DNA of 64,000 bases, from NCBI GenBank assembly GCA_013387215.1, contig WARW01000003.1, positions 10,227 through 74,226 on the forward strand. The letters are read 5' to 3'. Below are positions 1 to 34,227 of the stretch, piece after piece. The position numbers and the translations under genes are program-made. The stretch comes from Patescibacteria group bacterium. Lineage in GTDB: Bacteria; Patescibacteriota; Microgenomatia; UBA12405. The first letter of the stretch is position 1, and each line of letters begins with the position of its first letter. The notes under the pieces are model-generated. The model had not been told where the DNA came from, searched no databases, and saw only the letters and a list, made by a program, of their open reading frames with translations.

Positions 1-168
1 ATTTTTGTTGACAATCCTCATCCGTTTTCAGAAATCATAAATTATGAATTTATTGCCGAAGAAGTAATCAGGACTATGGTGGGAAGTATCGGATTGGTTT
101 TAGCAGTGCCAGTAACCACTTTTTTAGCTGCATTAATGTTTAGACAAATTAAAAATAAAAATAAGTGA
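1..168 (+). CDS. 3' end of a membrane protein gene entering from upstream (possibly YibE/F family); partial
   Basis: Frame 1 is open from base 1 to TGA at 166-168. The tail ...EEVIRTMVGSIGLVLAVPVTTFLAALMFRQIKNKNK is a terminal TM helix plus basic end. The family guess is from memory only. Confidence 0.35.
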   Translation: MFVDNPHPFSEIINYEFIAEEVIRTMVGSIGLVLAVPVTTFLAALMFRQIKNKNK

Positions 169-13010: not shown

Positions 13011-14448
13011 ATTACTAGTGCTGATAGTTCTGGTGACATCCCTAATCAGCATTTATTTTCTTTTTACACAATCGATTCGTTTAGATGAGGCTCAATCGAT
13101 ATGGATGTTTACTAAATCGATTCCCGGGATGCTCAAACTTACTTCTCAAGATGTAAATTTACCGCTTTACGGAATAATTATGCATTTCTGGCTGCAGATA
13201 TTAGGAATAAATATTGTTAGAGCCAGATTATTATCTTTGATATTCTTTTTAATAACATTACCAGTTCTGTACCAACTAATAAAAGAATCGAGCGATAGTG
13301 ATCATGCAATTTTAACAGTAGCATTTTTTGCTTTTTCTCCTTTTATTTTGTGGTACACCAGTGAAGCCCGAACTTATACGTTGTTTATATTAATTGCTTG
13401 TTTACAACAATTATATTTTTTACGATTAATCAGAAGTGGTGGAAATAACGGAAAATTTGGTTATTTTATTGGTACTGCACTTGGATTTTATACACATTAT
13501 TTTTTTATTTTCCTTTTAATTGCCCAAATAGTTTTTGTACTGAGTTTAAGAATAGTTAAAGGTAAAAATAAAAATAGGTTAATTAAACGTCACCTAATTT
13601 TAGATTTTGGAGGTTTATTGGTTTTTATTCCTTGGATTTATTATATTTTTAGGACCGGAGGAGCGGTTAACACACAGCCATTAATTCCTATTCCAAACAG
13701 CTATAGCGTGGTGCAGACTTTTGTTAATTTTGTGGTGGGATTTCAATCTCAATCAATTCAAGCAGTCTTAATTTCTCTTTGGCCACTTTCGACTGTAATT
13801 TTATTTTTAATGTTTACACATAGGAAACAAAAATTGGTTAAAAATGTCGAATACTTTTTTTTAGTCACTTTTTTACCGATTATTTTAGTGTTTTTAATAT
13901 CTTTTATAAAACCCATTTTTTTATCTAGATATTTAATTTTAGTGACACCAACATTATTTTTTATAATTGCATGGATAATTTTGAGTAATTCTAAAAAAAT
14001 ATCTTTTTATTTATCGGTATTAATTTTGCTTTTGATGTTTAGTTTTTTAATGTTTCAGAACATTTCGGCAGCAACTCCAAGTAAAGAAAACTATAGTGAA
14101 GTTAGCCAATATTTGAACCAATATACAACACCAGAAGATATTGTGGCAATTACTGCTCCATTTACTATTTATCCAATTGAATACCAATACCAAGGTGAAG
14201 CTAAATTAGTAACAATTCCTAATTGGGATAAATATGTTGAAGGACCAATCCCCCAATATAATTCTGATAATCTAGTTAAACAAATTAATGACTATAAAAC
14301 TCAATATAATCGTTTGTTTGTGGTTTTTTCGTATGATCAGGGATATGAAAATGATATAAAAAATTATCTGGACACACATTATGCCATCATGGGAATGGGA
14401 AAGTTTTCGGACAGTATTGAAATGAGAATCTACAAATTGAGATACTAG
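12988..14448 (+). CDS. GT-C fold glycosyltransferase (GT39/GT83, ArnT/PMT-like)
   Basis: First-loop motif RLDEAQSIW, more than 10 TM helices and a soluble C-terminal domain. The start is uncertain (ATG at 12946, 12988 or 13000). Confidence 0.65.
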   Translation: MKENMSNKLLVLIVLVTSLISIYFLFTQSIRLDEAQSIWMFTKSIPGMLKLTSQDVNLPLYGIIMHFWLQILGINIVRARLLSLIFFLITLPVLYQLIKESSDSDHAILTVAFFAFSPFILWYTSEARTYTLFILIACLQQLYFLRLIRSGGNNGKFGYFIGTALGFYTHYFFIFLLIAQIVFVLSLRIVKGKNKNRLIKRHLILDFGGLLVFIPWIYYIFRTGGAVNTQPLIPIPNSYSVVQTFVNFVVGFQSQSIQAVLISLWPLSTVILFLMFTHRKQKLVKNVEYFFLVTFLPIILVFLISFIKPIFLSRYLILVTPTLFFIIAWIILSNSKKISFYLSVLILLLMFSFLMFQNISAATPSKENYSEVSQYLNQYTTPEDIVAITAPFTIYPIEYQYQGEAKLVTIPNWDKYVEGPIPQYNSDNLVKQINDYKTQYNRLFVVFSYDQGYENDIKNYLDTHYAIMGMGKFSDSIEMRIYKLRY

Positions 14449-18400: not shown

Positions 18401-18582
18401 TTGGCTGAACTAGGACTGTATACAACTCTGGCTTTTTCAGTGGCAAAATTAACATTAACCTCATTAACACCATTAACTTTTTTTAAAGACCGCTCGATAA
18501 GACCAGCGCAGCTGCTACAATGCATGCCAGTAATATCCAAATTTACGGCAATATTTTTTGTAGATGGGTTTTGATTTTCCAT
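15490..18582 (-). CDS. copA: Copper-translocating P1B-type ATPase with an extra TM helix and a ~270-aa C-terminal extracytoplasmic extension
   Basis: [22 protein letters not shown] ([12 protein letters not shown]), DKTGTLT and GDGINDAP. The canonical end is ...[11 protein letters not shown], followed by the helix [20 protein letters not shown] and about 270 more residues (1030 aa total). Confidence 0.9.
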
Positions 18583-18584
18583 AT

Positions 18585-18803
18585 TTATAGAAGCTGGGCT
18601 GTATAGCCAGAATTTTTTATAATTTTTATTAAATCTTCTGAATTAAGTTTGTCAGAATCAAATTCAACAGTAACTAGTTTTGTTTCTAAATTAGCATCAA
18701 CAGAAATAACACCATTAGTATCTTCTAAGTCCATTTGAATTAATTTTGGACAGGAAGGACAATGCATGTCGGAAACTTTAAATGTATTTTTTTGATTAGT
18801 CAT
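18585..18803 (-). CDS. copZ: Copper chaperone (HMA domain)
   Basis: 72 aa, [14 protein letters not shown] (MxCxxC). Confidence 0.85.
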
Positions 18804-18811
18804 GTTGGTTT

Positions 18812-19222
18812 TTAATTAATAACTTCAAAAGTACCCGTGTACATGCCCATGGTGCAACTGAAACGATAGGTTCCAGGTGCAACTGGAGTAAATTCTTTTG
18901 TAACTTGAGAGTTAGGGATAAGATCAATTCGGTCTGAGAAAAGCCCGTGAGAAACAATACTTCCAGCGCAGCCAGCATTGCCAGATGAAGTAATTTGCCA
19001 AACCACTGGTATGTTGGCTTTAATTTTAAAATTGTTTGGAGAATAACCAGCAGCCGAAGCAGTCATCTTAACAATTTGTTTACCATCTACAACTTGAACT
19101 AAGTCAGGGCCAGAAGCTGCATTGGAAACAGAGGGGTGTTTTTGGCTAAATATGAAAAAACCAAAAACAACGATTAAAACTATCGAACCTAAAACATAAA
19201 ATAGATTAGAAATATTTTTCAT
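18812..19222 (-). CDS. Membrane-anchored cupredoxin-like domain protein
   Basis: N-terminal TM anchor, then a domain paralogous to the C-terminus of the upstream gene (GCAGSIV ... FSCTMGMYTGTFEV). Start moved to ATG at 19222. Confidence 0.65.
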   Translation of the reverse strand: MKNISNLFYVLGSIVLIVVFGFFIFSQKHPSVSNAASGPDLVQVVDGKQIVKMTASAAGYSPNNFKIKANIPVVWQITSSGNAGCAGSIVSHGLFSDRIDLIPNSQVTKEFTPVAPGTYRFSCTMGMYTGTFEVIN

Positions 19223-19230
19223 AGTTTTTA

Positions 19231-20694
19231 TTAATGATGACAACCACAACCTTTTGCACCAGATTCAATAATAGTTGGGGCTGCTCCAACAGAGTTGATA
19301 TTGCCTGATTTATCAAGCACTTCAAAAGTGCCCGTAACCATGCCCATCCAACAACTAAACCGATAAATTCCAGGAGTGTTGACAGTAAATTCTTTAACAC
19401 TGGTGGTTCCTGGAACTAAATCAATTTGACCGGAAAATAGTTGGCGGGAGATGATGGCATTAGTGCAACCACTAGTGCCCGTATCCTCTATTTCCCATTT
19501 AACAGGTATTCCAGCGCGAACTTTAAGTTTATTTGGAGCATATCCAGCAGATGAAGCTTTAATATGGATGATTTGCTTACCATCAATAATTGGAGGTAAG
19601 TCAGTGGCAATATTTTGAGATATGGTTTTAGGGGAAGTTAGAGATTCCAGATTAGAAACGCCTAAAACTGCCAATTGGGCATTTATATTAAAAAAGGCGA
19701 AGAATAAAACCAGAATTCCGGCAATTATAGAAAACTGCTGAGAAAATTTTGGATTAGAAAAAAGTTTAATACTGGTTAAGCCAATTGTGAGCAGGCCTGG
19801 TAGGGTGCCAATAGCAAATAAGCCCATGATTAAGGCACCTTGTATTGGATTACCAGAAGCTAATGCCAGTGCTTGGACTGTAATAGTAAAACCGCAAGGC
19901 AAGAAAAAGGTTAAAGCTCCCATAATTACCGGAGCAAATTTGCCAGTAAAATTAGACTCGTCTGAAAATCGGCGGGTTAAAGATTTGGGTAATTGAAGAC
20001 GAAATTTTTGCAGAGCTTTTATGCCAAGCATTTGTAAACCCAGAAGAATCATTAAGACAGATACAGCGATCACTAGGCTGGCTGAAAAAAGCGGCGTCAA
20101 TCTGAAGAAATTACCAATTTGGCCCAGAATGGCGCCAAAAGCAAGATAAGATAAAACCCGACCAGTATTAAACAAAAAGTGCGGTTGTAGTTTTTTGACG
20201 GTGGAATCGGAATTTGAATAAAGATTGTTCCATTGTTGAGACAAAGATAAAATAATACCGCCAACAAGAGCCGCGCAACTGGAAAAACCAGCGAGCAGAC
20301 CGAAAAGGAAAAACACAGGTAGAGAACTTTGTGCATTAACTGATATTAAAGAGGAAAATCCAGATTTACCTAATAAAATAAAAACTAAAATAAATAAAAG
20401 GCTAAAAAATAATGAAGAAAAAACATTGAGACGTTTTTTTTCTATTGGGCAAGAAACAGCTTTGGTGTTTTGTTTAGAAAATGGCTTGAGTGAAAACCGA
20501 TAGTTATCTTTTAAAAAGATATCGTTTAAATCTTTTAAAGATATTTTTATATTTCTTTTTGTTTCAAGAGATAAAGTTGACTTAGCTAAGGAAACCTCGG
20601 CTTTAACAACTCCTTGCTGCTTTAAAAGTTTCTTTTCGATTAGAATTTCACAAGAAGGACAATGCAGGCCAGAAATATAAAATAATTGTTTCAT
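19231..20694 (-). CDS. Triple fusion: HMA domain, CcdA/DsbD-like polytopic membrane domain and cupredoxin-like domain with a GCGCHH tail
   Basis: GLHCPSCEILIEKKL, then 6-7 TM helices containing FFLPCGFT, then the C-terminal domain GCTNAII ... FSCWMGMVTGTFEV, ending ...GAKGCGCHH. Start taken at ATG 20694 (MKQLFYISG). Confidence 0.7.
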   Translation of the reverse strand: MKQLFYISGLHCPSCEILIEKKLLKQQGVVKAEVSLAKSTLSLETKRNIKISLKDLNDIFLKDNYRFSLKPFSKQNTKAVSCPIEKKRLNVFSSLFFSLLFILVFILLGKSGFSSLISVNAQSSLPVFFLFGLLAGFSSCAALVGGIILSLSQQWNNLYSNSDSTVKKLQPHFLFNTGRVLSYLAFGAILGQIGNFFRLTPLFSASLVIAVSVLMILLGLQMLGIKALQKFRLQLPKSLTRRFSDESNFTGKFAPVIMGALTFFLPCGFTITVQALALASGNPIQGALIMGLFAIGTLPGLLTIGLTSIKLFSNPKFSQQFSIIAGILVLFFAFFNINAQLAVLGVSNLESLTSPKTISQNIATDLPPIIDGKQIIHIKASSAGYAPNKLKVRAGIPVKWEIEDTGTSGCTNAIISRQLFSGQIDLVPGTTSVKEFTVNTPGIYRFSCWMGMVTGTFEVLDKSGNINSVGAAPTIIESGAKGCGCHH

Positions 20695-20710
20695 ACTACG
20701 TAGTGTAGTA
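20694..20710. promoter_or_regulatory. 17-nt dyad-containing motif TACTACGTAGTGTAGTA abutting the start codon of the HMA-CcdA-cupredoxin gene
   Basis: 15 of 17 nt are identical to the motif at 21986-22002. It contains the perfect palindrome ACTACGTAGT and occupies the 23-nt gap after the BlaR1-like gene. Confidence 0.45.
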
Positions 20711-20717
20711 GATGTTT

Positions 20718-21626
20718 TCATTCTTTGCAATGGTCTGATAAAGAGATGTTTTGGTGAGAGAATAAAACTTCGACACATTTGACCAAATGGTTGCATTGAT
20801 AGAAAATTGTAGATTTACCAATAAAGGTAGTAGTAAACAAAATGAGAACCAATAAAAATGAATTTAGGGTAAAGAAGTTTTTGAAATTAGGCTTCTTTTT
20901 ATCAACTAAAACCGAAACGCGTTCATGAAATTCAGAAAAATTATTGAGATAAAAATTATTTCTTGTGTCAGGTTCTTCTATTTTTAACAGAGCAGAAACC
21001 AATGGTGTTTTTGATTTCAATTGAGTTTGGGCATAATTATCACAATTTATTTCTACCAATGCAGAATAATTTTTGAATATCCAGACTTTCTTTGGGAAAG
21101 AAGGTAAAAAGTGGTTGATTAAATCAACAATAAAATCTTTTAAAGGGTCAAAATTAAATTGATGTTTTTGTTCATGAAAAATAATCGCTTCCAATTCTTT
21201 TGGATTAACGGTTTTAATTAATTTTTCCGATATATAGATTTGAGGATTTAAAAAACCTGAAGTAAAGGCAATGACTTCTTTAATTTTGATCAAGTTATAC
21301 TGATTTTGTCTTTTTGATTTAAGGTTGTTTAAAAATTTTTTAGTTAAAAATATTTTATTAAAAGAATAATCGAGAGATTTAAAGAAGCGAAGTAAAAGAA
21401 TAAATAATATTATTCCGGATAAAACATTTATATAAAATGTCGAAGAAATAATTAAGGGAATTAAATTTTGATGATTATTTTTTAGGGCATCTATTAAAAA
21501 TATCAACTGCATCGAAAATCCAGAGAATATCTTTAAAAAGGCGAGTGATAAAAAGGATATGTAAAGAATTCCTAAAGTTAGGATGAATAAAAAAGCTAGA
21601 TTTCTTTGAAAACTGATTTTAGTCAT
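20718..21626 (-). CDS. BlaR1/MecR1-type M56 membrane metallopeptidase (signal-transducer-like)
   Basis: Polytopic N-terminus, HExxH (FHEQKHQ), and an 8-nt overlap with the upstream BlaI/CopY-type repressor gene. Confidence 0.7.
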   Translation of the reverse strand: MTKISFQRNLAFLFILTLGILYISFLSLAFLKIFSGFSMQLIFLIDALKNNHQNLIPLIISSTFYINVLSGIILFILLLRFFKSLDYSFNKIFLTKKFLNNLKSKRQNQYNLIKIKEVIAFTSGFLNPQIYISEKLIKTVNPKELEAIIFHEQKHQFNFDPLKDFIVDLINHFLPSFPKKVWIFKNYSALVEINCDNYAQTQLKSKTPLVSALLKIEEPDTRNNFYLNNFSEFHERVSVLVDKKKPNFKNFFTLNSFLLVLILFTTTFIGKSTIFYQCNHLVKCVEVLFSHQNISLSDHCKE

Positions 21627-21984
21627 TATTTTTCAAATATTCTTTTAATAACTCAATATCATTTTTATTGTTTTTAATAGTATCGACAAATTGGGAAATA
21701 GCCAACTTACCATATGAACCGACCAAATTGCCGTAAATTCCAGACAGATTAGATTCGATAAACTGATCTTTATTTAAAATGGGAGTATAAAAATAAACTT
21801 TACCTTCTAGTTTTCTTTTGACTATTTTTTTATCTGACATTCGCTTGAGAACAGTCATAATTGTGGTGTAGGCCTGATCCCCTTTTAGACTCACTAGAAC
21901 TTCGGCAGGTTTTAAAGGACGGTTGGACTGCCAAAGGATATCCATTATCTTCTGTTCTAATTCACCAAGCATTTGGGTTTTCAT
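21619..21984 (-). CDS. BlaI/MecI/CopY-family winged-helix repressor
   Basis: 121 aa. LGELEQKIMDILW ... YTTIMTVLKRMSDKKIVKR pattern, typical of the Penicillinase_R family. Confidence 0.8.
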   Translation of the reverse strand: MKTQMLGELEQKIMDILWQSNRPLKPAEVLVSLKGDQAYTTIMTVLKRMSDKKIVKRKLEGKVYFYTPILNKDQFIESNLSGIYGNLVGSYGKLAISQFVDTIKNNKNDIELLKEYLKNND

Positions 21985-22031: not shown

Positions 22032-23420
22032 TTATTGCTTACATTGACCATTGTAGACTGGTGAACAACCAAGTTGGCTGTCGGTTCGCTGGCCAGAAGT
22101 GTCGTCAATATGTTTACGAAGCACTTGTTCTAGCTCATACCCTTTTTGAGGAATGGTGGAGATTAAATTGTTTTGCTCTTTAGGATCGTCATTTAGGTTA
22201 TAAAGCTCTTTGTTGCCGTTTTCTAAAGTTAAAATAAATTTCCAGCCATCTGGAGTCTGATAGGACCTTTTAAATGTATAAAGTCGATAATCAGTTTCAC
22301 TAAATACACTGTGGGCGACAGATTTACCATCAAAAACCGGAGTAAGATCAGCACCTTTTGTCTGTTCAGGAACAGGGTTTTTTATTCCCAATAAATCAAG
22401 CGCAGTTGGAACTATATCGAGAGTGCTTACTAGTTCATTAATTCTTTGGCCTTTGGTTTGGCCTGGTTTGTGAATAGCAAACAAAACATCAACTAGTTCA
22501 CCATAAAGAGTGTGGCCATGATCAAAACGATTATGTTCGTAGAATTCAGTGCCATGATCACTCATAACGATAATAATTGTATTATCCAAAAGTTTCATGT
22601 TGTTGATCTGATCCATAAAGTTTTTGAATTCAGCATCGGTACGATTAATCTTTTCATCATAAATAGCCCGCCAAAAAGCCACATCTTCGGGTGATAGATT
22701 TAAACTTTTACCAGCTAAACCGTCTTCACGAAGTTGACCTTGTTCGGTTGGACTGCCAGTATATTTGCCGTTATATGGCTTTGAAACATAGCGATAATCA
22801 AAACCACCGGCTGGTGCATGCTGCCCGTGAACATCATAGCCATGAAGGAAAAGGAAAAACTGCTTGTTTTTATTCTGCTTTAACCAGTCAACTGCTCTTG
22901 GTATGCTGCCATCGAAACCACCGAAGGTGCCAGTGGGTTCATAATAAGTATCAAAACCTTGACTAAAACCAAACTGCGGCCCAACTCCAGCATCGCCAGT
23001 AAAACCGCCAGTAACAAAACCTTGTTTTTTAAGAATTTCAGCAAGGGTCATGGCATTCGGAGAAAGTTTTTTTAAATTAGAAATAGTTCCCTTTTGGGCT
23101 TTCATATCGTAATCACTAAATTTGTTGACAACTTTATGTTCGGATGGATACATAGAAGTAAAGACAGACATGTGGGTTGGCACTGTCCAAGATGACGGAC
23201 TGACAGTATTGGTAAATAAAGTTGACTTATCAATAAAAGAATCTAAATTGGGAGTCGTGTTCAAAGAATAGCCATATTCATGCAAATGCTTGGCCTGCAA
23301 GCCATCGATCGAAACAAGAATAAGATTATATTTTTTATGAAATAGTTTTGGAGAAATCTTTATTGCAGCAACGGTTAGTAAGCTTAGAACAATGACACCA
23401 ATAAGAAATTTAATTTTCAT
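22032..23420 (-). CDS. Sulfatase-fold (alkaline-phosphatase superfamily) ectoenzyme, Thr-nucleophile type, divergent seventh paralogue
   Basis: N-terminal anchor, SIDGLQAKHL, TVPTHMSVFTSMYP (Thr at the position of the sulfatase Cys/Ser) and SDHGTEFYEH. Confidence 0.75.
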   Translation of the reverse strand: MKIKFLIGVIVLSLLTVAAIKISPKLFHKKYNLILVSIDGLQAKHLHEYGYSLNTTPNLDSFIDKSTLFTNTVSPSSWTVPTHMSVFTSMYPSEHKVVNKFSDYDMKAQKGTISNLKKLSPNAMTLAEILKKQGFVTGGFTGDAGVGPQFGFSQGFDTYYEPTGTFGGFDGSIPRAVDWLKQNKNKQFFLFLHGYDVHGQHAPAGGFDYRYVSKPYNGKYTGSPTEQGQLREDGLAGKSLNLSPEDVAFWRAIYDEKINRTDAEFKNFMDQINNMKLLDNTIIIVMSDHGTEFYEHNRFDHGHTLYGELVDVLFAIHKPGQTKGQRINELVSTLDIVPTALDLLGIKNPVPEQTKGADLTPVFDGKSVAHSVFSETDYRLYTFKRSYQTPDGWKFILTLENGNKELYNLNDDPKEQNNLISTIPQKGYELEQVLRKHIDDTSGQRTDSQLGCSPVYNGQCKQ

Positions 23421-23493
23421 ATCAAGTAAATCAAATTATATAAATGATATAAGTGTTATATTAAATTTATCTTTTAAAAGCAATAGACCGTAA

Positions 23494-25023
23494 ATGCGAT
23501 TGGGTAAAAAAATATTTATATTTGGTTTGCTGGGATTGATGATAATTGGGAGCGGTTTTTTGATTATTAAAAAAGTATCAAAAAAAACCTGCGATAAATG
23601 CAACATAATGCTTATCGATGTTGATATTTTGAGAGCAGATGAACTTCCCTGCTATGGATATCCCCGAAACACAATGCCAAACATTTGTGAATTTGCCAAA
23701 AAATCAGTAAGTTTTAAAGATAATTATTCGACTTCATATTGGACACTACCAAGTATTTTTTCAGTAATTACTTCACTATATCCAACTTTTCATCAAATGC
23801 AGGTTAATTATATGTTTGCACTGTCGTCTAGAATTCCGACTTTAGCAGAAACTTTACATAAGCAAGGATATAAGACTGTTTATGTGGGACAAAAAGACGA
23901 TTTAATGTCTAGTTATAATGGCGGTTTCCGCGGTTATGATTTAGTAACTCAAGAACCAATTGAAAAAGTAATTGATGAACTTTCAAAAAGTTCTCAACCA
24001 TGGTTTATACATAGGTATATCAGTGAATTGCATATGCCCTATTTATTGCCAGATAATTTAAAACCTGTGGAAGATTTGCCGGTTCCAAAAAATTTACCAA
24101 CTACTTATTACACTTTCGATTTATTTTTTAATAAATATTTAAAAGAACATTACAAAGAAATATTTAAACAGAAAGCAATCGATGAATATAGAGCAATTAT
24201 TTTAGGACCAGATAAGGCAGATGATATTAGTGTGACCAATCTTTTTGATAAATTGAGAGCTGACGATAAAACCATAAATGAATATTTATTAGATGCCTGG
24301 AGACCGAGATTAGATTTTTATTTAAAATCGTTTGACGGAAAAAATCCCCAAGATGTGGCTTATTTAAGAATGATGTATGACACTAAACTAAAATATCTTG
24401 ATGAAAAACTAAAACCTCTTTTACAAAGACTAGACTCGAGTTCATTGTCAAAAAACACTATTACAGTGATTATGTCGGATCATGGTGAAGCATTTGGCGA
24501 GCACGGAACGTTTTCACATGAGGATAATCATTTCACTGAACTATTTTACACTCCTTTAATAATCAGGGCTCCTCAATTTGAAGCAAAACAAGTTGAACAA
24601 ACCACAAATATAGTGGATATATTTCCGACTATTTTAGATTTAACAGGTGAGAAAAAAATTGATATGCATCAAGGGCAATCATTAGTACCTTATATGAATG
24701 GCCAAACTAAAAACGATACTACATTCAGCTTGAGCCAATCAATAGAAGGAACGCTTTTACAAAATAAGAATTGGCTGTACTTTTTACCAAACAGCGCTAA
24801 AGATATGAATGAATCAGAACTCTATAATAAAACCATCGACCCCCTGGAAAAAGTGAATGTGACTGGACAGAATCAAGATTTAGTTAAAACACTTTTTAAA
24901 AAAGCTGATTTATTCCGCTCATACGGAGGGATTGATTATGAAAAAGAAGAAATACCGTTGCCAAACCGGATGAAGTTGGACCCAGATAAAATAGAACGCC
25001 TTAAAAAAGAAGGATATTTTTAA
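23494..25023 (+). CDS. Sulfatase-fold ectoenzyme paralogue 1 (Thr-nucleophile type)
   Basis: TM anchor, CDKCNIMLIDVDILRADELPCYGY...PNIC, SYWTLPSIFSVITSLYPTFH, SDHGEAFGEHG and the tail ERLKKEGYF. Confidence 0.8.
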   Translation: MRLGKKIFIFGLLGLMIIGSGFLIIKKVSKKTCDKCNIMLIDVDILRADELPCYGYPRNTMPNICEFAKKSVSFKDNYSTSYWTLPSIFSVITSLYPTFHQMQVNYMFALSSRIPTLAETLHKQGYKTVYVGQKDDLMSSYNGGFRGYDLVTQEPIEKVIDELSKSSQPWFIHRYISELHMPYLLPDNLKPVEDLPVPKNLPTTYYTFDLFFNKYLKEHYKEIFKQKAIDEYRAIILGPDKADDISVTNLFDKLRADDKTINEYLLDAWRPRLDFYLKSFDGKNPQDVAYLRMMYDTKLKYLDEKLKPLLQRLDSSSLSKNTITVIMSDHGEAFGEHGTFSHEDNHFTELFYTPLIIRAPQFEAKQVEQTTNIVDIFPTILDLTGEKKIDMHQGQSLVPYMNGQTKNDTTFSLSQSIEGTLLQNKNWLYFLPNSAKDMNESELYNKTIDPLEKVNVTGQNQDLVKTLFKKADLFRSYGGIDYEKEEIPLPNRMKLDPDKIERLKKEGYF

Positions 25024-25068
25024 TAGGTGGTATATTAAACTGATAATTAAAAGTAATAGGCTGTTTTA

Positions 25069-26613
25069 ATGCTCAAAAGAAAATATCAAAAAATTATAAT
25101 CGGAGCGGGATTTATTTTGTTGATTATATTTGGGCTAATAGGACTTTTTAAACGAACAAACAAATTGCCATTTAAAGCCTGTACCAACTGCAACATTATA
25201 TTAATTGATATTGATATTTTAAGAGCTGATGAATTGCCTTGCTACGGATATTCCCGAAATACCACCCCAAACATTTGTAATTTTGCGAAAAAGGGTATGA
25301 TTTTTAATGACAACTATTCTCCATCCTATTGGACTATGCCTAGTATGTTTTCCACAATAACGTCTCTTTATCCAACTTTCCACCGAATCCAAATGAATTA
25401 CACTGAAGCTTTGTCGCCTAAAATTCCAACCCTTGCAGAAACTTTACACAAACAAGGCTACCGAACAATCTATATTGGCCCGGAAGACGACATGTTAAAA
25501 CACAATAATGGCGGCTTACGCGGTTATGATTTAGTGACTCAAGAACCGATTGAAAAAGTGGTAAGCGAATTGTCGAAAAGTTCTCAACCATGGTTTGTGC
25601 ATTACTATAATAGTGATTTGCATGCCCCATATTTATTTAATGAAAAACCTCAATTGATTGATAATCTTCCCGCCCCTAAAAATTTTCCAATTACTTATTT
25701 AGATTTCAGTATTCTTCTAAATAAATATTTAAAAGAACATTACAAAGAAATATTCAAACAGAAAGCTATCGATGAATATAGAGCAATTATTTTAGGACCA
25801 GATAAAGCAGATGATATTAGTGTAACTACTCTTTTTAACAATATTAGAGGCGATAAGAAAATAATGAATGATTATTTATTTGATGCCTGGGTGCCAATAT
25901 TAAACACTTATCTTGGTTCTTTTGATAAAAATAATGCCGATAATGTGGCATATTTACGCATGATATATGATACTAAACTTAAGATAATAGACGATAAGTT
26001 GGGAGCGCTTTTTCAAGAGTTGGATTCAGAAGCACTATCTAAAAACACCATAACAGCAATTTCGTCAGACCACGGAGAAGCGTTTGGAGAACATGGAACT
26101 TTTTCACATGAGGTTAACCATTTCACTGAACTATATTACACACCTTTAATAATCAAGGCTCCACAATTTTCAGGAAAAATAATTAATGAAACCAGCAGCA
26201 ACATTGATATTTTCCCGACTTTTTTAGACTTAACCGGCAGCGAAAAAATTAATAATCAGCAAGGCAAATCACTAGTTTCTTATATGAATAATGAAAATAA
26301 AAGTTTAGAGGGCTTTAGTGTCAGTGAATGTTCGGAAGGAATATTGCTGCAAAATAAAAAATGGTTGTATTTTTTATCAAATGAGGTTTCAGAATTTAAT
26401 AAATCGGAACTTTACGACAGGAAAAATGATCCATTAGAAAAAAATAATGTGGTTGGAAAGAATCCAGAATTAGCTAGATCACTTTACCGACAGGCTGATT
26501 TGTTCCGATCCTATGGCAAAATTGAATATAAAAAAGAAGAGATACCAATTAGTGAGCAAATTAAGTTGGATCCAGAAAAGATCGAACGTCTTAAAAAAGA
26601 AGGCTATTTTTAA
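25069..26613 (+). CDS. Sulfatase-fold ectoenzyme paralogue 2
   Basis: Same motif set as paralogue 1 (CTNCNI, SYWTMPS, SDHGEAFGEHG, ERLKKEGYF). Confidence 0.8.
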   Translation: MLKRKYQKIIIGAGFILLIIFGLIGLFKRTNKLPFKACTNCNIILIDIDILRADELPCYGYSRNTTPNICNFAKKGMIFNDNYSPSYWTMPSMFSTITSLYPTFHRIQMNYTEALSPKIPTLAETLHKQGYRTIYIGPEDDMLKHNNGGLRGYDLVTQEPIEKVVSELSKSSQPWFVHYYNSDLHAPYLFNEKPQLIDNLPAPKNFPITYLDFSILLNKYLKEHYKEIFKQKAIDEYRAIILGPDKADDISVTTLFNNIRGDKKIMNDYLFDAWVPILNTYLGSFDKNNADNVAYLRMIYDTKLKIIDDKLGALFQELDSEALSKNTITAISSDHGEAFGEHGTFSHEVNHFTELYYTPLIIKAPQFSGKIINETSSNIDIFPTFLDLTGSEKINNQQGKSLVSYMNNENKSLEGFSVSECSEGILLQNKKWLYFLSNEVSEFNKSELYDRKNDPLEKNNVVGKNPELARSLYRQADLFRSYGKIEYKKEEIPISEQIKLDPEKIERLKKEGYF

Positions 26614-26654
26614 TTAGGTTAATATATAAATAATATATTGAATAAATAAATTAC

Positions 26655-28196
26655 ATGAAGATTCTTTTTTTTAGAGAAAAAAAATACCGCAAGATTATTG
26701 TGTTAGTTGGTATAGCATTAATAATTGGGTTAGTACTTGCATGGAAAAGATTGCCTGAAAAAAAGTGTGAACACTGCAATATTGTAATGGTAGATATTGA
26801 TGTCTTAAGAGCTGATGAGTTGCCTTGTTATGGATATTCCCGAAACACCACTCCCAATATTTGCCAGTTTGCCAAAAAGGCGACTATTTTTAAAGATAAT
26901 TATTCGACTTCATATTGGACTTTACCTAGTATGTTTTCAACAATTACCTCTATGCTACCCACCTTTCATAAGGTGAGAACTGAATTTATCAACAAACTGT
27001 CCCCTGATACAAAAACACTAGCCGAAGTTTTACATAGCCAGGGATATCGAACAGTATATATTGGCGACGGCCAGAATCCTGCTTTATTAACCAAAGATAA
27101 CGGAGGCTTGAGAGGTTACGATATTGTGACAAAAGAACCGATCGAAAAAGTAATTGCAGATCTTTCAAAAAGCTCACAGCCATGGTTTATCCACTATTAT
27201 TTAGTTGATTTACATATGCCTTATTTATTACCAGAAAATGTGAAACCAATGGAAGATCTGCCAGCTCCAAAAAATTTGCCAATAAACCAAACCGATTTTG
27301 ACCGCATGTTAAATACCTATTTAAAAAAGCACTATAAACAAATATTTAATGAAAAAGCGATTGGAAAATACGGCTCGGTTATTTTAGCTCCAGATAAAGC
27401 AGATGATACCAGTGTGACTAAACTTTTCAACGATTTAAGATGGACTAGTAAAAGCATGACTGAATATTTTATTGACAGCTGGAAGCCTATTTTTAATTCA
27501 TATATGGATTCATTTGATAAGAATAATCCCAATGATGTGGCATATATTAGAATGATGTACGATACAAAATTAAAACTGGCTGACGAGCAACTACAATCTC
27601 TTTTTATAAAATTAGAGACAAAACCATTTTCTGAAAATACGATCTCGATAATTATGTCAGATCATGGAGAAGCGTTTGGAGAACATGGAACTTTTTCCCA
27701 TGACAATAATAGTTATACGGAACTTTATCACACGCCGTTAATAATTCGGGCACCTGGACTGCCTGCTAAAATTGTGGACCAAACTTCAAGCAACCTAGAT
27801 ATTTTTCCAACAGTTTTAGACTTAAATGAAATAAAAAAATTAGACAGTTTTCAGGGAAAATCATTAGTGGACAGTGTCAATAAAAAAACAGAAACTAAAT
27901 CATTTAGTCTAAGCGAATATTCTGATGGTGTAATTTTACAAAACCATGACTGGCTGTATTTCTTACCATTTTGGGTTGATAAGTTTGAAAACTCAATGTT
28001 GTTTGATAGAAATAAAGATCCTAAGGAAAAAAATAATGCAGCAAAACAGAATTTAGAGTTAACTCACTTTCTTTATAAACAAGCTGATTTATTGAGATCT
28101 TATAATGGAATTATTTATAAGCCAGAGGAAATTCCAAGCGATATTAAATTAAATCCTGAAAAAATAGAGCGTCTTAAAAAAGAAGGCTATTTTTAA
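26655..28196 (+). CDS. Sulfatase-fold ectoenzyme paralogue 3
   Basis: CEHCNI, SYWTLPS, SDHGEAFGEHG, ERLKKEGYF. Confidence 0.8.
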   Translation: MKILFFREKKYRKIIVLVGIALIIGLVLAWKRLPEKKCEHCNIVMVDIDVLRADELPCYGYSRNTTPNICQFAKKATIFKDNYSTSYWTLPSMFSTITSMLPTFHKVRTEFINKLSPDTKTLAEVLHSQGYRTVYIGDGQNPALLTKDNGGLRGYDIVTKEPIEKVIADLSKSSQPWFIHYYLVDLHMPYLLPENVKPMEDLPAPKNLPINQTDFDRMLNTYLKKHYKQIFNEKAIGKYGSVILAPDKADDTSVTKLFNDLRWTSKSMTEYFIDSWKPIFNSYMDSFDKNNPNDVAYIRMMYDTKLKLADEQLQSLFIKLETKPFSENTISIIMSDHGEAFGEHGTFSHDNNSYTELYHTPLIIRAPGLPAKIVDQTSSNLDIFPTVLDLNEIKKLDSFQGKSLVDSVNKKTETKSFSLSEYSDGVILQNHDWLYFLPFWVDKFENSMLFDRNKDPKEKNNAAKQNLELTHFLYKQADLLRSYNGIIYKPEEIPSDIKLNPEKIERLKKEGYF

Positions 28197-28209
28197 ATAA
28201 ATTTGAAAG

Positions 28210-29727
28210 ATGGATAAAAAAATAAGAAATGTTTTATTGGTTTTGTTAATTTTTGTCGTGGGAACGGCAGTATTTGCATTAATAAAGACTAGGACAAAGA
28301 AAACCTGTGATCATTGCAATATTGTGATAATGGATATTGATATTTTAAGAGCTGATGAATTGCCCTGTTACGGATATTCCAGAAATACGACCCCAAATAT
28401 TTGCCAGTTTGCCAAAAAGGCAACTGTTTTTAAGGATAATTATTCAACTTCTGTTTTAACACTACCAGATATGTTTTCGATAATTACATCTCTTTATCCA
28501 ACTTTTCACCATGTGAACACAGCAACAATCGATAAACTTTCAGCAAACATCCCTACTTTGACTGAGATATTGAAAAAAGAAGGCTACAGGACAGTTTTTA
28601 TTGGAGATAGTGAATATTCTGGAACAATAAATAATCAAAACAATGGGCTAAGAGGCTTTGATATGGTGACACAAGAACCGATTGAAAAGGTAATGGAAGA
28701 ATTATCAAAAAGTTCTCAACCATGGTTTATATATTATTACTCAGGCGACTTACATATGCCTTATTTACTGCCGAAAAACACAAAACCGATGGAAAATATG
28801 CCGGCTCCAAAAAACTTACCGATAAACCAAACTGATTTTGATAAACGGTTAAATATTTATTTAAAAAATCACTACAAAGAGGTTTTTAATAAAAAAGCCA
28901 TTAAAGAATATTCTTCAATAATATTATCGCCAGATAAACCAGCAACTGAACTGTTTTATTCCTTAAAAAGTGACAATGAAAAGATGAAAGAATACTTAAT
29001 CGATGTGTGGAAACCTGAGTTTAACGTGTATATGGAATCATTTGATCAAAATAATTCTTCAGAGGTAAGTTATGTCCGAATGATTTATGATACAAAGTTA
29101 AATTTAGTTGATAATAAACTTGAAAAGGTGCTTAAAAAACTGGACACAAAAGAATCAATAAAAAATACGATTACTTTAATTTCATCAAACCACGGAGAAA
29201 GCTTTGGAGAACATGGAAATTTTTCCCATAATTTTAGTCCTCACTCAGAACTTTATTACACTCCATTAATAATTAAAGCGCCACAACTTAAGGCAAAACA
29301 AATCCAAAATACTTCAAGTAATATGGATATCCTACCCACAATTTTGGATTTAACTGGAATAAAAAAGTTAGACAGTTTTCAAGGAAACTCATTGATCGCT
29401 AGTATTAATCAAAAAGAAAACTTAGAAAATTTTGCCATGAGTGAATATTGGGGAAATATAATTTTACAAAATAAAAAATGGCTATATTTTTTACCAGCAG
29501 AAGCTAAATACATTGAGCAATCAATGCTTTTTAATAAAGAGAATGATAAAGATGAAAATACCAATGTGTCGATGCAAAATACAGAACTAGTAAAGATGCT
29601 TTACAAAAGGGCGGATTTGCTACGTTCTTATAGTGGAATTAATTATAAAATAGAAACTATTCCTACTAATGAAATAAAAATAGATCCTGAAAAAATTAAG
29701 AGGATTCAAAAAGAAGGATATTTTTAA
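28210..29727 (+). CDS. Sulfatase-fold ectoenzyme paralogue 4 (variant metal-ligand motif SNHGE)
   Basis: CDHCNI, SVLTLPD, SSNHGESFGEHG (Asn where the other copies have Asp) and KRIQKEGYF. Confidence 0.75.
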   Translation: MDKKIRNVLLVLLIFVVGTAVFALIKTRTKKTCDHCNIVIMDIDILRADELPCYGYSRNTTPNICQFAKKATVFKDNYSTSVLTLPDMFSIITSLYPTFHHVNTATIDKLSANIPTLTEILKKEGYRTVFIGDSEYSGTINNQNNGLRGFDMVTQEPIEKVMEELSKSSQPWFIYYYSGDLHMPYLLPKNTKPMENMPAPKNLPINQTDFDKRLNIYLKNHYKEVFNKKAIKEYSSIILSPDKPATELFYSLKSDNEKMKEYLIDVWKPEFNVYMESFDQNNSSEVSYVRMIYDTKLNLVDNKLEKVLKKLDTKESIKNTITLISSNHGESFGEHGNFSHNFSPHSELYYTPLIIKAPQLKAKQIQNTSSNMDILPTILDLTGIKKLDSFQGNSLIASINQKENLENFAMSEYWGNIILQNKKWLYFLPAEAKYIEQSMLFNKENDKDENTNVSMQNTELVKMLYKRADLLRSYSGINYKIETIPTNEIKIDPEKIKRIQKEGYF

Positions 29728-31292
29728 TGAAAGGCTTTTTAAGTAGAAAAAAACTTTTGTTGCTAGCATTATTGATTTTATTGTCGATAGTAATTGGTTT
29801 TGGATCGTGGACTTTTTATAAAAAAACAGAAAATAAGTCCGAAAAAAAGTGCGAGAATTGCAACATAATGCTTATTGATATTGATATTTTAAGAGGTGAT
29901 GAATTATCCTGTTTGGGATATTCCCGAAATACCACCCCAAACATTTGTGAATTTGCCAAAAATGGAGCTGTTTTTAAGGATAATTATTCGACTTCATATT
30001 GGACTCTTCCAAGTATATTTTCAACCATGACTTCTTTGTATCCGACTTTTCATGGGATGCAAAATGCAGGCAAGGATATTCTCTCTCCAAACATTACAAC
30101 TTTGGCTGAGGTGTTACATAAAAAAGGATATATGACGGTTATGGTAAACGGAAATAAAGATACAATGCAAATGCTGTTTGGCGATAATGAGGGTTTGAGA
30201 GGCTTTGAAATGGTTACAGCTGATCCGGTTGAAAAAGTTATAGATGACTTATCAAAAGACAATAGACCTTGGTTTATTTATTACTATAACTCAGAGCTGC
30301 ACTTTCCATATTTATTGCCAGAAAACACAAAACCGATGGAAGATTTGCCAGCTCCAAAAAATTTACCAATAAACCAAACTGATTTTGATACTTTACTAAA
30401 TAAATATTTAAAGACTCATTATACAGAAATATTTAAGCCAAAGATAATTGATAAGTACGGTTCGATTATTTTAGGGTCAAATAAAGAAGATGATATGGGT
30501 ATGGTGAAAATGTTTAATACTTTAAAAGCGGATCCTTCAAAAGTAAGCGAATATTTTATTAATGACTGGAATGCAAATTACCAAACTTACATGGAGTCGT
30601 TTGATCAAAATAATCCATCTGACGTTAAATATGTGCGAATGCTTTACGATACAAAATTAAAATTACTTGATAATAAAATGGGAAGTGTTTTACAAAAATT
30701 AAATTCGAAACAGCTTTCAGAAAATACAATCACAGTTATTACTTCAGACCATGGAGAAAATTTTGGAGAACATGGTTTTTTTACCCATATTGCCGATTTT
30801 CATTCCGAAGTGTTTTATATTCCATTAATTATTAAATCACCCAACATTTTACCGACAACAATCGAGCAAACAACAAGTAATATTGACATATTCCCTACTC
30901 TTTTAGATTTAACTGGCATCAATAGCCCGGGCGGACTACAAGGGATTTCTTTAGTTCCGTATATTAATAATCAGCACACAGAAAAACAATCATTTGCTAT
31001 GAGTGAATATTGGGGAAATGTGATTTTAGAGAATCATGATTGGCTGTATTTTTTACCTAAAGATGAGCAAGGTGTAGTCAAACCCACGTTCTATGACAGA
31101 ATTAAAGATCCGGCAGAAAAAGAAAATGTCATAGATAAATATCCTGAGATGGTAAATTCCCTTTATAAACAAGCCAGCCTGCTTCGCTCTTATAATGTTT
31201 TCTATGAAAATAAACCAATAGTAAAACCTGATGTAATCAAAAACATTGATAAAGTAAAATTAGATCGATTAAGGAAAGAAGGTTATTTTTAA
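29727..31292 (+). CDS. Sulfatase-fold ectoenzyme paralogue 5
   Basis: CENCNI, SYWTLPS, SDHGENFGEHG, DRLRKEGYF. Its start codon overlaps the stop of paralogue 4 (TAATG). Confidence 0.8.
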   Translation: MKGFLSRKKLLLLALLILLSIVIGFGSWTFYKKTENKSEKKCENCNIMLIDIDILRGDELSCLGYSRNTTPNICEFAKNGAVFKDNYSTSYWTLPSIFSTMTSLYPTFHGMQNAGKDILSPNITTLAEVLHKKGYMTVMVNGNKDTMQMLFGDNEGLRGFEMVTADPVEKVIDDLSKDNRPWFIYYYNSELHFPYLLPENTKPMEDLPAPKNLPINQTDFDTLLNKYLKTHYTEIFKPKIIDKYGSIILGSNKEDDMGMVKMFNTLKADPSKVSEYFINDWNANYQTYMESFDQNNPSDVKYVRMLYDTKLKLLDNKMGSVLQKLNSKQLSENTITVITSDHGENFGEHGFFTHIADFHSEVFYIPLIIKSPNILPTTIEQTTSNIDIFPTLLDLTGINSPGGLQGISLVPYINNQHTEKQSFAMSEYWGNVILENHDWLYFLPKDEQGVVKPTFYDRIKDPAEKENVIDKYPEMVNSLYKQASLLRSYNVFYENKPIVKPDVIKNIDKVKLDRLRKEGYF

Positions 31293-31298
31293 AAACAG

Positions 31299-32831
31299 AT
31301 GAAAAAAAAGATAAGTTTATTATTAATTGGATTAATGGTTTTTTTTACAATCGCTGCTTTTTTAATAAAAAAAGAAGTTATTAATAAACCTAAAATCTGC
31401 AAGCATTGCAATATCATGCTTATTGATGTGGATGTATTGAGAGGAGATGAATTGCCCTGCTATGGATATTCCCGAAACACCACCCCAAACATTTGTGAAT
31501 TTGCCAAAAATGGAGCTGTTTTTAAGGATAATTATTCGAACTCAATAATGACGCTGCCAAGTATGTTTTCCACTATCACTTCGCTTTATTTAACTTTTCA
31601 TAAAGTAGAAGTAAGTTTTGCTGATAGACTTTCGATAAAAATACCAACTTTAGCAGAGACATTACAAAAAGAAGGATATAGAACTGTATTTATAGGCAAA
31701 AGCGATGACCCTTCCACACTAAACCAAGAAAATGGAGGTTTACGAGGTTATGATTTAGTGACTCAAGATTCAATCGATAAGGTTGTGGACGATTTATCAA
31801 AAAGTTCTCAACCTTGGTTTGTGCACTACTATAATTCAGATTTACATATGCCCTATTTATTGTATGATGGCATGAAACCAATGGAAAATTTGCCAGCTCC
31901 GAAAAATATGCCAATCAGTTATTCGGATTTCGATAAACTGTTAAATACTTATTTAAAAAAACATTCAACTGAAATATTTAATAAAAAAGCAATTGAGGAA
32001 TATTCATCAACAATATTGGCACCAGATAAAGAAAACGATGTGAGCGTGACCCAGCTTTTTTATACCCTTCGCAATGATCCTAATAAAATGAAAAAATATT
32101 TAATTGATGGCTGGAAACCGATTTTTGATTCTTATATGGGATCGTTTGATAAAAATAATGAAAAAGATTTGGCTTATTTAAGGATGATGTATGATTCTAA
32201 TCTTAATTTGGTGGACAAAAAGTTGGAGCCAGTTTTGAATAAATTAAAATCAAAATTATTAGCAAAAAACACTATAAGTATATTTATGTCAGACCATGGC
32301 GAAGCTTTTGGTGAACACGGAACTTTTACTCACGACTACAACCATCACACAGAGCTATTTTATACACCATTAATAATTAAAAGTCCTAGTTTTTCAGGAA
32401 AAGTGATTGACCAAACTACAAGTAATATCGATATTTTTCCAACTATTCTCGAACTTGCAGGAATTAGAGACCCAGGTGTTTTACAAGGACAATCGTTGGT
32501 TCCGCATATGAAGGGAGTGGCCGAAAATTCAAGACCATTTGCCATAAGTGAATATTACAATGGCACGGTTTTACAAAACCATAACTGGTTTTATTATTTA
32601 CTGAACAGTGAAAATATTGAAAATTCGATACTTTATGACAAAATAAATGATCCTTTGGAAAAGGATAATGTATCTTTAAAACATCCAGACTTAACAATGA
32701 ATCTTTTCAAACAAGCAGATATTTTGCGTGTATATAATAGAAATTATAATAAGGAAGAGATTCTAAGATCCGAAAAGACTGGATTAGATCAGACAAAAAT
32801 AAAAAGGATTCAAAAAGAAGGATATTTTTAA
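31299..32831 (+). CDS. Sulfatase-fold ectoenzyme paralogue 6
   Basis: CKHCNI, SIMTLPS, SDHGEAFGEHG, KRIQKEGYF. Confidence 0.8.
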   Translation: MKKKISLLLIGLMVFFTIAAFLIKKEVINKPKICKHCNIMLIDVDVLRGDELPCYGYSRNTTPNICEFAKNGAVFKDNYSNSIMTLPSMFSTITSLYLTFHKVEVSFADRLSIKIPTLAETLQKEGYRTVFIGKSDDPSTLNQENGGLRGYDLVTQDSIDKVVDDLSKSSQPWFVHYYNSDLHMPYLLYDGMKPMENLPAPKNMPISYSDFDKLLNTYLKKHSTEIFNKKAIEEYSSTILAPDKENDVSVTQLFYTLRNDPNKMKKYLIDGWKPIFDSYMGSFDKNNEKDLAYLRMMYDSNLNLVDKKLEPVLNKLKSKLLAKNTISIFMSDHGEAFGEHGTFTHDYNHHTELFYTPLIIKSPSFSGKVIDQTTSNIDIFPTILELAGIRDPGVLQGQSLVPHMKGVAENSRPFAISEYYNGTVLQNHNWFYYLLNSENIENSILYDKINDPLEKDNVSLKHPDLTMNLFKQADILRVYNRNYNKEEILRSEKTGLDQTKIKRIQKEGYF

Positions 32832-32838
32832 AAAATAA

Positions 32839-34227
32839 ATGAAAAAAAATTATTTTTATATAGTTTTGGCAATTTTTAGCGGATTAATGATGTTCCCCCA
32901 ATTGATGATTAAGTACCCTTCTTTAATTGATGATGGAGTTAATTTTTTAACAGTAAAAAACAATAATTTTTTTCAAATATTTTGGCACCAACTATTTATT
33001 GATGAAAGAACAAGACCATTACAACTGATTTTTAGAAAAATACTTTTTGAAATTTGGGGATTTAATATATCGGGGAATTTTTTGGCTTACACCTTATTAC
33101 TTTTTGGAGTTGGGGTTATGGTTTGGAAAATTTTGGAAGGCATATTTAATGACAATAAAATAAAATGGTTAAGCCTTTTACTGTTTACTTTACCAGGAGT
33201 TTATGCGAATTTTTATCGTTTAGGCACAGATGAAACTATACAATTATTTTCAATTTTGGTAGTTATTGCCTTAGTAATCAGAAAGAAGTGGAAATGGGGC
33301 ATGATTGTGATGTTAATAAGTTTATTAACGAAGGAAACTTCTATTTTATTTTTGATGGCTCTTTTAGTGTTTTATTTGGTAAACAAACGAAAAAAAGAAG
33401 CGGTTTGGGGTGTGATTGGAGCTGGATTATTTATTTTTTTAGTCTGTTTTAAATATCAGTTTTATGAATCGGCAACATATATCCGAACTGGAGAATTATC
33501 TTGGAAACATATAATGTATAGTTTTACCTCTCACCCAGTCTTGGCAATACTGGTGATTGTTTTGCCAATTTTACTTTGGATAAAAAGAAAGGCTTTGGGA
33601 GAAAGAAATGCCTTATTAATGGCCTTATTAATTAGCAGTTGTATTGGAGAAATTGTAATTTGGGATGTAAGACAGGAATACTACTGGTTAATAATAGAAG
33701 TATTAATCTCGATTGGAATTGCGATGGCTCTTAGTCAAATAAAATATTGGCCGTTAATGCTGGTAATGTTGGCGTACTTAAATTTTAATAACACCATGTA
33801 TGAGATTAAGTATTGGCACGGAAAATATCTGAAAGACGAAGTCTTGGTTGAATATTTACTCAACAAAAATTGGAAAAATACAAATGTTTATATAGACGAT
33901 AATGATTTTGAAGAAAACGATAAGATACGCTATTATATTAGTTCCTGGAACACTGGGGCAAAAAGTATTTATCCAGATACTGATATTTGGCTAGTAAATC
34001 AAACTAAAAAAGATAGAAATTATTTTATCGAAACAGCCAAAAATTCAATTAAGCTATTTAACGAAAATAAAACCAATAGCGTTTTGATTTCAAATAATGA
34101 AGAAGATTTATATAAAATGGGAAAAGAACTTTCAGTTGATTTTCAGCAAGCAGCTAGAAAAATATGCGGAAAGTCATGGTTGCTTTCTAATCCCGATTGT
34201 TTTTTGATTATTGAAAAGAATCAATAA
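32839..34227 (+). CDS. Polytopic membrane protein, GT-C glycosyltransferase-like
   Basis: 462 aa with more than 10 TM helices, an acidic first loop (LIDDGVNFL) and a soluble C-terminal domain. It starts 7 nt after the sulfatase-like array. Confidence 0.45.
   Translation: MKKNYFYIVLAIFSGLMMFPQLMIKYPSLIDDGVNFLTVKNNNFFQIFWHQLFIDERTRPLQLIFRKILFEIWGFNISGNFLAYTLLLFGVGVMVWKILEGIFNDNKIKWLSLLLFTLPGVYANFYRLGTDETIQLFSILVVIALVIRKKWKWGMIVMLISLLTKETSILFLMALLVFYLVNKRKKEAVWGVIGAGLFIFLVCFKYQFYESATYIRTGELSWKHIMYSFTSHPVLAILVIVLPILLWIKRKALGERNALLMALLISSCIGEIVIWDVRQEYYWLIIEVLISIGIAMALSQIKYWPLMLVMLAYLNFNNTMYEIKYWHGKYLKDEVLVEYLLNKNWKNTNVYIDDNDFEENDKIRYYISSWNTGAKSIYPDTDIWLVNQTKKDRNYFIETAKNSIKLFNENKTNSVLISNNEEDLYKMGKELSVDFQQAARKICGKSWLLSNPDCFLIIEKNQ

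Follow-up and report, generated by a model that had tools for sequence, protein, structure and literature searches.

Which chemistry is served by a run of seven sulfatase-like genes packed into about 11 kb of a patescibacterial genome, and are these genes variations on a single theme or parts of a more structured system? The genes in question lie at positions 22032-32831 of a 64-kb stretch of contig WARW01000003.1 (hereafter the window, in whose coordinates all positions are given), an AT-rich sequence (26-38% G+C) whose proteins find their nearest homologs in Candidatus Shapirobacteria and other Microgenomates. An earlier note on this DNA had read them as one seven-member family of membrane-anchored sulfatase-fold enzymes, with six members in tandem and the seventh a distant copy. 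Our analysis reveals two kinds of protein, namely a short, divergently transcribed and strongly conserved one, here termed A, and six longer tandem paralogs, termed B1-B6 in array order, and supports for both a Thr-type phosphoryl-transfer site in place of the formylglycine (FGly) site of the sulfatases.

All seven open reading frames (ORFs) were recovered where the earlier note had placed them. Each scores 121-127 bits against the Pfam PF00884 profile (cut-off 25), with a catalytic domain beginning near residue 32-46 in proteins of 462-521 amino acids (aa), and each also matches SGSH_C, the C-terminal sulfatase subdomain; a six-frame hidden Markov model (HMM) scan of the window recovered exactly these seven members. 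Membership in PF00884 stands, but the picture of one homogeneous family does not. Six further Microgenomates genomes, represented by seven loci of which two are on near-duplicate contigs, have an A gene (459-473 aa) that is divergent from adjoining B genes (500-550 aa), the latter numbering 1, 1, 1, 2, 2 and 5 copies per genome as against six in the window. The window A is 68-77% identical to the A proteins of these related genomes, while the best B-B matches from the same contigs are only 43-54% identical, pointing to a pronounced asymmetry of evolutionary rate; the genes flanking the module vary from genome to genome. Thus, rather than being a mere diverged paralog, the supposed distant copy is the ortholog of a strongly conserved cross-phylum enzyme that has the tandem genes as variable partners.

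The wider distribution of A was traced in a survey of one genome per species, which yielded 334 confirmed stretches with A relatives, the best 80 of which were examined. These 80 loci, with A proteins 46-72% identical, come from Patescibacteria, Geobacterales, Nitrospirae, Planctomycetota, Omnitrophota, Elusimicrobia and Aenigmatarchaeota (DPANN archaea); identity to proteins of cultivated Geobacter is 54%. One or two adjacent B-like PF00884 genes are present in 41 of the 80, and in two further loci the B-like gene is cut by the contig end. Such pairs of a conserved and a variable gene occur in several bacterial phyla and in some archaea. In one additional case (L035, from a Geobacteraceae metagenome-assembled genome; JACABD010000003.1, 8914-11946) a single ORF of 1010 aa joins an A-type protein to a B2-type partner via a short AATPGF linker; as the B half lacks a signal peptide of its own, the ORF reflects a true fusion rather than a frameshift. 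Nearly all loci in which A has no partner are of the Planctomycetota type. A metagenome scan with the B profile recovered mostly remote relatives (24-33% identity), and tandem pairs are common in this wider clade: in 22 of 80 loci two to four genes for such remote Thr-type relatives (L098-L168) share a contig stretch, usually as direct neighbors. Duplication in tandem hence seems to be a general tendency of the clade and not specific to the window.

The gene neighborhoods of A in the other phyla have features of their own. In 26 Planctomycetota-type loci (L042, L047, L055, L057, L058, L061, L064-L067, L069, L071-L073, L075-L077, L079, L082-L087, L089, L090) a protein of about 375 aa with an FGE-sulfatase domain (PF03781, 154 bits) adjoins A, and in 25 cases its gene immediately precedes A in the same orientation. 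These neighbors were considered as makers of FGly and rejected in that role, their best NCBIfam matches being of the GldK/PvdO/EgtB type and far below cut-off. The Geobacterales and Nitrospirae loci (L009, L010, L022-L054) display the order metallo-β-lactamase-fold protein (RNase Z/GntH-like), A with a twin-arginine (Tat) signal, B1 and B2. Many of them carry upstream two B12-radical-SAM genes, a methyltransferase, two sulfotransferases and an ADI/DDAH-like gene, and downstream genes for multiheme cytochromes and FGE-domain proteins.

Inspection of the active site revealed a consistent departure from the sulfatases, in agreement with what had been proposed from the motifs alone. The signatures IDVDILRADE, WT[LM]P[SD] and S[DN]HGExFGEHG are found in all six tandem copies, and A has its own versions, SIDGLQAKH, WTVPT and SDHGTEFYEH. 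The earlier note had placed a Thr at the nucleophile position, and in an HMMER alignment the Cys/FGly column of the wild-type choline sulfatase 6fny is indeed occupied by Thr: SSPL-C-APAR of 6fny pairs with TSYW-T-LPSI of B1, with the Pro retained and the Arg replaced by Ile. This column of the CxPxR motif holds Thr in all seven proteins, the position of the Arg being occupied by I or M in B1-B6 and by H in A. In both types the DD pair has lost its second Asp (the column holds I or G), the GKxH loop is represented by a gap or Q-KD in the alignments, and the column of the C-terminal Lys holds another residue, a His lying close by. The claim that these proteins cannot be FGly sulfatases is borne out by this combination of losses.

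The residues that persist instead match those of Thr-nucleophile enzymes, as had also been suggested. As reference for MCR-1 we used MCR-1.5 from a plasmid record, in which the published catalytic residues were located before alignment to the family HMM. Its E246/T285 align with D39/T79 of A, and its D465/H466/E468/H478 are in register with D329/H330/E332/H342 of B1 and with D288/H289/-/H301 of A, the MCR-1 segment SDHGESLGENGVYLHG falling opposite SDHGEAFGEHGTFSHE of B1. In human ENPP1 the counterpart of T79 of A is likewise the nucleophile Thr (KTFPNH), and an H-x4-H pair in A (LHGYDVHGQ) resembles LHQMGNHGP of MCR-1, a match made by eye. The pairwise alignment of MCR-1 and B1 is ambiguous around the nucleophile; the assignment of the B Thr comes from the sulfatase alignment together with that of A and B. 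These alignments support the view that the proteins are not FGly sulfatases and are likely to possess a Thr-type phosphoryl-transfer site. The constellation of Thr and Asp/Glu, Asp-His and distal His is retained in 66-68 of 68 B-family sequences (from Microgenomates) and in 114-118 of 118 A homologs. In the B family, Asp44 and His330 are found in 68/68, Thr and His180 in 67/68 and His342 in 66/68, while nine catalytic or near-catalytic positions of the A family are invariant (118/118). A additionally has invariant H193, D196, H198 and H301, which could potentially form a second NPP-like Zn site (Asp/His/His).

The two-domain sulfatase fold is present in AlphaFold2 (AF2) models (pLDDT 92.9 for B1 and 82 for A), and profile comparisons with S1 sulfatases in the PDB gave 150-190 bits for the B family and up to 122 bits for the A family. 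The closest known proteins in both fold and sequence are thus the S1 sulfatases and phosphonate monoester hydrolases (BT3177 7p24, 6fny and SpPMH 4upk), which differ from the present family in using a Cys- or Ser-derived FGly as nucleophile and in having the second Asp, the CxPxR Arg, the GKxH loop and the C-terminal Lys. The NCBIfam choline sulfatase, arylsulfatase and PehA models returned 88-119 bits, below their cut-offs of 433-900. With EptA, MCR-1 and LtaS the family shares Thr as nucleophile, an acidic residue as first ligand, the Asp-His pair, the Glu that comes next and a His 12-13 residues on, along with an extracytoplasmic catalytic domain. A alone carries NPP-like motifs, which alignment locates in its N-terminal half: LVSIDGLQAKHL...WTVPTHMSVFTSMYPSEH parallels LFSLDGFRAEYL...KTFPNHYSIVTGLYPESH of ENPP1 with the Thr residues aligned, and like the NPPs, A would be a secreted or anchored hydrolase. 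The Pfam Phosphodiest profile (PF01663, cut-off 23) scores 57.6 bits with A and 26-34 bits with B1, B2 and B5; since PF00884 far outscores it on the same region, these are not NPP members in the strict sense.

Each of the seven proteins begins with a charged stretch followed by a hydrophobic segment of 17-20 residues, and AF2 models a helix at residues 4-25 of B1 and 2-21 of A, so that the hydrophobic N-terminal segment, read by the earlier note as an anchor in every copy, is present throughout. The N-termini of the seven copies show no obvious cleavage site or lipobox. In Geobacter the A orthologs bear the twin-arginine signal RREFLKR and are soluble, Tat-exported proteins, and their partners have Sec-type signals. 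An anchored ectodomain facing outward is therefore the likely arrangement for the window proteins, as far as homology and the signal peptides of the orthologs can indicate.

Among the six B copies, protein identity is 52-66% and DNA identity 62-71% (66% and 71%, respectively, between B2 and B1), with third-position identities of 0.44-0.53 that are near saturation, and the longest exact word common to the tandem copies is 61 nt. This degree of DNA divergence, together with the lack of any longer exact word, indicates that the array is old and real. In a neighbor-joining tree the six are monophyletic, and the five L001 copies, like the pairs from L004 and L008, branch elsewhere; the B expansions thus appear to be independent and lineage-specific. 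The catalytic motifs are the most conserved stretches among the six paralogs, and variability peaks at residues 101-110, 131-140, 251-270, 401-420 and 431-450 of B1. The first two of these peaks correspond to the phosphate-contacting Asn loop of the NPPs and the substrate-binding GKxH loop of the sulfatases, a pattern that fits diversified substrate specificity among the paralogs. The B type is further typified by four Cys residues in 67-68 of the 68 sequences (a CxxC just past the anchor helix, C53 and C65 in B1 numbering) and by a C-terminal ...KEGYF end in 66-67 of them, both absent from A and from the Geobacter partners, and by a helical insert of about 50-80 residues (between about 185 and 285 of B1) that is lacking in A and common to the S1_11 sulfatase 7p24.

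Given these observations, the interpretation that we favor, with a probability of roughly 0.55, is that the module encodes a two-component set of anchored extracytoplasmic metalloenzymes of the alkaline-phosphatase superfamily, which would effect phosphoryl transfer through a phospho-Thr, with A working alongside diversified B partners. The first Asp, together with the Thr and the Asp-His pair, would hold a divalent metal that activates the Thr hydroxyl for attack on a phosphate ester, giving a covalent phospho-Thr intermediate; this might then be resolved by water or, less likely, by an acceptor hydroxyl, the outcome being extracellular hydrolysis of phosphodiesters or phosphomonoesters. A would represent the ancient core enzyme with a nearly invariant active site, and the six B genes a lineage-specific tandem expansion of its partner. 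The adjacency of the genes and the one fusion point to cooperation of A and B, which might occur in a complex or as successive steps on one substrate class.

Several observations weigh against this interpretation. In overall sequence and fold the proteins are nearer to true sulfatases than to any characterized Thr enzyme. Within the Asp-His pair, the Asp persists in just 52 of the 68 B-family members and is replaced in 16, B4 of the window among them; it is always I, M, V or S in the Geobacterales and Nitrospirae partners, the B2-type of which also changes the first Asp to Gln. Hence, at least some partners may be non-catalytic. The partnership itself is not universal, A of Planctomycetota mostly occurring without a B partner. 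The geometry of the active site and the number of metals are read from alignments, and the tree separating the B expansions carries no bootstrap support. Positive charges flank the anchor helix on both sides, which is why topology was deduced from homology and from ortholog signal peptides. Finally, literature searches turned up no study of this clade.

A bolder version of the two-component reading would have A and B as obligate hetero-oligomers, with A supplying an invariant catalytic core and the B proteins serving as interchangeable, fast-evolving specificity or targeting subunits whose metal site would be wholly degenerate in some phyla, in which case the array would be a repertoire for six phosphoester-bearing targets in the bacterium's own envelope or that of its host. 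We consider this unlikely, though if true it would constitute a new organizational principle for the alkaline-phosphatase superfamily.

An alternative that we regard as improbable is that the proteins are LtaS/EptA-like transferases, which would take a phospho-substituent (glycerol phosphate, phosphoethanolamine or phosphocholine) from a donor, either lipid or soluble, and attach it to a glycopolymer of the surface in concert with the neighboring glycosyltransferases. Here a single hydrophobic segment stands in place of the polytopic N-terminal domain of about five helices with which LtaS, EptA, MCR and OpgB bind their lipid donor, and it is this difference that makes hydrolases the more likely reading over lipid-donor transferases. 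The NCBIfam EptA, MCR, LtaS and OpgB models score 15-37 bits against cut-offs of 400-1250, and the A orthologs of Geobacter are soluble and Tat-exported. As to the glycosyltransferases, the earlier note had the array bracketed by GT-C genes. This holds on the right side, where a weakly PMT_2-like gene begins just past B6 (26.0 bits against the PMT_2 cut-off of 26.1, and 48 bits against a cut-off of 150 for the NCBIfam AZOBR_p60025 family) and is probably co-transcribed with it; on the left side the adjoining genes instead encode a BlaI/CopY-type repressor and an M48/M56 peptidase, and one has to go 7.6 kb upstream to reach a PMT_2 gene. A conserved GT-C context was not found either: loci L001-L008 have no PMT_2 gene beside the module, and the gene following B6 has no similarity to that downstream of B in L003. 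As there are three PMT_2 genes in the 64 kb of the window, such adjacency could arise by chance, and being one-sided and unconserved as well, the GT-C link was not accepted as functional evidence. Envelope-polysaccharide genes often occur within a few kb of the module in the related loci, which is only suggestive in view of the frequency of such genes in these genomes.

Also quite improbable, in our estimate, is the possibility that only A works as an enzyme and that the B proteins are non-catalytic or weakly catalytic subunits for binding, targeting or regulation, so that the array is a repertoire of subunits. The model for such a role is YejM/PbgA, a sulfatase-fold Thr protein that serves mainly as a partner or sensor, and the degenerate partner lineages indeed recall it. 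However, YejM/PbgA/LapC has five transmembrane helices and functions in the regulation of lipopolysaccharide in diderms, and five of the six window B copies keep every catalytic residue. Moreover, the retention of the Thr, Asp44, His180, His330 and His342 in nearly the entire B family, as enumerated above, is hard to explain without catalysis. The Collierbacteria- and Saccharibacteria-type partners have a Glu at the Asp of the Asp-His pair, and the partner lineage as a whole spans predicted states from fully equipped, as in these five copies, to clearly degenerate.

That the proteins are genuine sulfatases, as their database names have it, we hold to be very improbable. S1 sulfatases are their nearest neighbors in sequence and fold, an FGE-domain gene stands directly before A in the 26 Planctomycetota loci, and the Geobacter loci have sulfotransferase and FGE-domain genes nearby; one version of this idea would have the Thr oxidized post-translationally to a keto analog of FGly. 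Nevertheless, the C/S-x-P-x-R signature and the remaining sulfatase residues are gone, the FGE-domain neighbors are not FGE equivalogs by their NCBIfam scores, and the scanned ORFs of the window include no FGE-domain gene. The authors of SulfAtlas point out that Thr cannot yield FGly, and that Thr-bearing PF00884 proteins are not to be named sulfatases (PMC5066984). They count Thr in 30 of the 59 Pfam PF00884 seed sequences (PMC5066984), so that a Thr in a so-called sulfatase is by itself not new. The Mn-dependent arylsulfatase of Enterococcus (NCBIfam Mn_arylsulf, 40-59 bits) was considered as a Thr precedent and rejected, as it uses Cys61/FGly. The chance that the assembler collapsed or expanded a repeat is negligible, since, even though tandem repeats are a known hazard and this is a metagenome-type assembly of 77,210 bp, the copies are too divergent for it (see above), each is an intact ORF with a distinct sequence, and similar two- and five-copy arrays are present in independent assemblies.

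Table 1. Coordinates of the A/B module and of other features in the window
Feature	Position	Strand	Description
PMT_2 gene	165-1388		Further PMT_2 gene outside the module
Glycan-related gene row	10276-14448		GH8 glycoside hydrolase, cellulose-synthase-like GT2 and PMT_2 GT-C gene in a row
Copper-handling cluster	15490-21984	minus	Includes a heavy-metal P-type ATPase (1030 aa) whose C-terminal extension is long
A	22032-23420	minus	462 aa; N-terminal hydrophobic helix and sulfatase-fold ectodomain; predicted nucleophile Thr79 (codon 23184-23186) within SWTVPTH; SDHGTEFYEHNRFDHG motif with first residue Asp288 (22557-22559)
A-B1 divergent intergenic region	23421-23493		73 bp
B1	23494-25023	plus	509 aa; Thr84 (23743-23745); SDHGEAFGEHGTFSH; catalytic set complete
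B2	25069-26613	plus	514 aa; Thr89 (25333-25335); catalytic set complete
B3	26655-28196	plus	513 aa; Thr89 (26919-26921); catalytic set complete
B4	28210-29727	plus	505 aa; Thr84 (28459-28461) in VLTLPD; metal-ligand Asp replaced by Asn (SNHGE, 29188-29190); most deviant active site of the array
B5	29727-31292	plus	521 aa; Thr93 (30003-30005); catalytic set complete; start shares one base with the end of the B4 stop codon
B6	31299-32831	plus	510 aa; Thr85 (31551-31553) in IMTLPS; catalytic set complete
Polytopic membrane protein	32839-34227	plus	Weakly GT-C/PMT_2-like; starts 7 nt after B6
T4SS-like cluster, then dnaN and dnaA	43877-55117		PrgI-like protein, VirB4/TraG P-loop ATPase and 1037-aa NlpC/P60 protein in the cluster

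The tandem genes are tightly packed (Table 1), with successive spacers from B1 to B6 of 45, 41, 13, -1 (one common base) and 6 nt. The regions upstream of B1 (23450-23493) and B2 (25024-25068) have in common the sequence GTATATTAAA...TTAAAAGyAATAGrCyGT, from which it appears that the duplication unit took in the 5' untranslated region. The divergent intergenic region between A and B1 presumably holds back-to-back promoters; its equivalents in 11 related loci measure 17-95 bp, and several A-B spacers (those of the window, L001, L003, L004, L007 and L012) contain TATAGT/ACTATA boxes in inverted orientation, at a distance of 6-13 nt from either start codon. The boxes suggest back-to-back promoters giving rise to leaderless mRNAs or mRNAs with very short leaders. 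A scan of the 21.5-34.8 kb region for promoter and terminator consensus sequences found sites no more numerous than in shuffled sequence and hence says nothing on operon structure, and tRNA and Rfam scans of the window came back empty.

Beyond the module, the copper-handling cluster on its left comprises, in addition to the P-type ATPase, two proteins whose C-terminal domains are similar and cupredoxin-like (one of the two proteins resembles DsbD/CcdA on visual inspection), the BlaR1-like M48/M56 peptidase and the BlaI/CopY-type repressor. GT-C genes, such as the two to the left of this cluster, are frequent in this genome. On the far right, a cluster resembling a type IV secretion system (T4SS) is followed by dnaN and dnaA, which makes it probable that the replication origin is close to the window.

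In conclusion, the A/B module does not qualify as a categorically new system but represents an uncharacterized and widely conserved variant of the alkaline-phosphatase superfamily, showing an unusual two-component organization that varies in copy number. On this evidence the names under which its members are found in databases (arylsulfatase, choline sulfatase, arylsulfatase K) are wrong for a clade spanning many phyla. The fact that A keeps about half of its residues between Patescibacteria and Geobacter, Planctomycetota or DPANN archaea implies an important function. The fusion, the degenerate partners and the repeated lineage-specific expansions make the module a tractable case for the evolution of a pair of enzyme and pseudoenzyme, or of enzyme and specificity subunit. 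The bacterium carrying the window array is probably ultrasmall and host-dependent or symbiotic, and for such an organism seven surface enzymes in about 11 kb represent a visible commitment to phosphoester chemistry outside the cell, which might plausibly serve nutrient scavenging or envelope remodeling.

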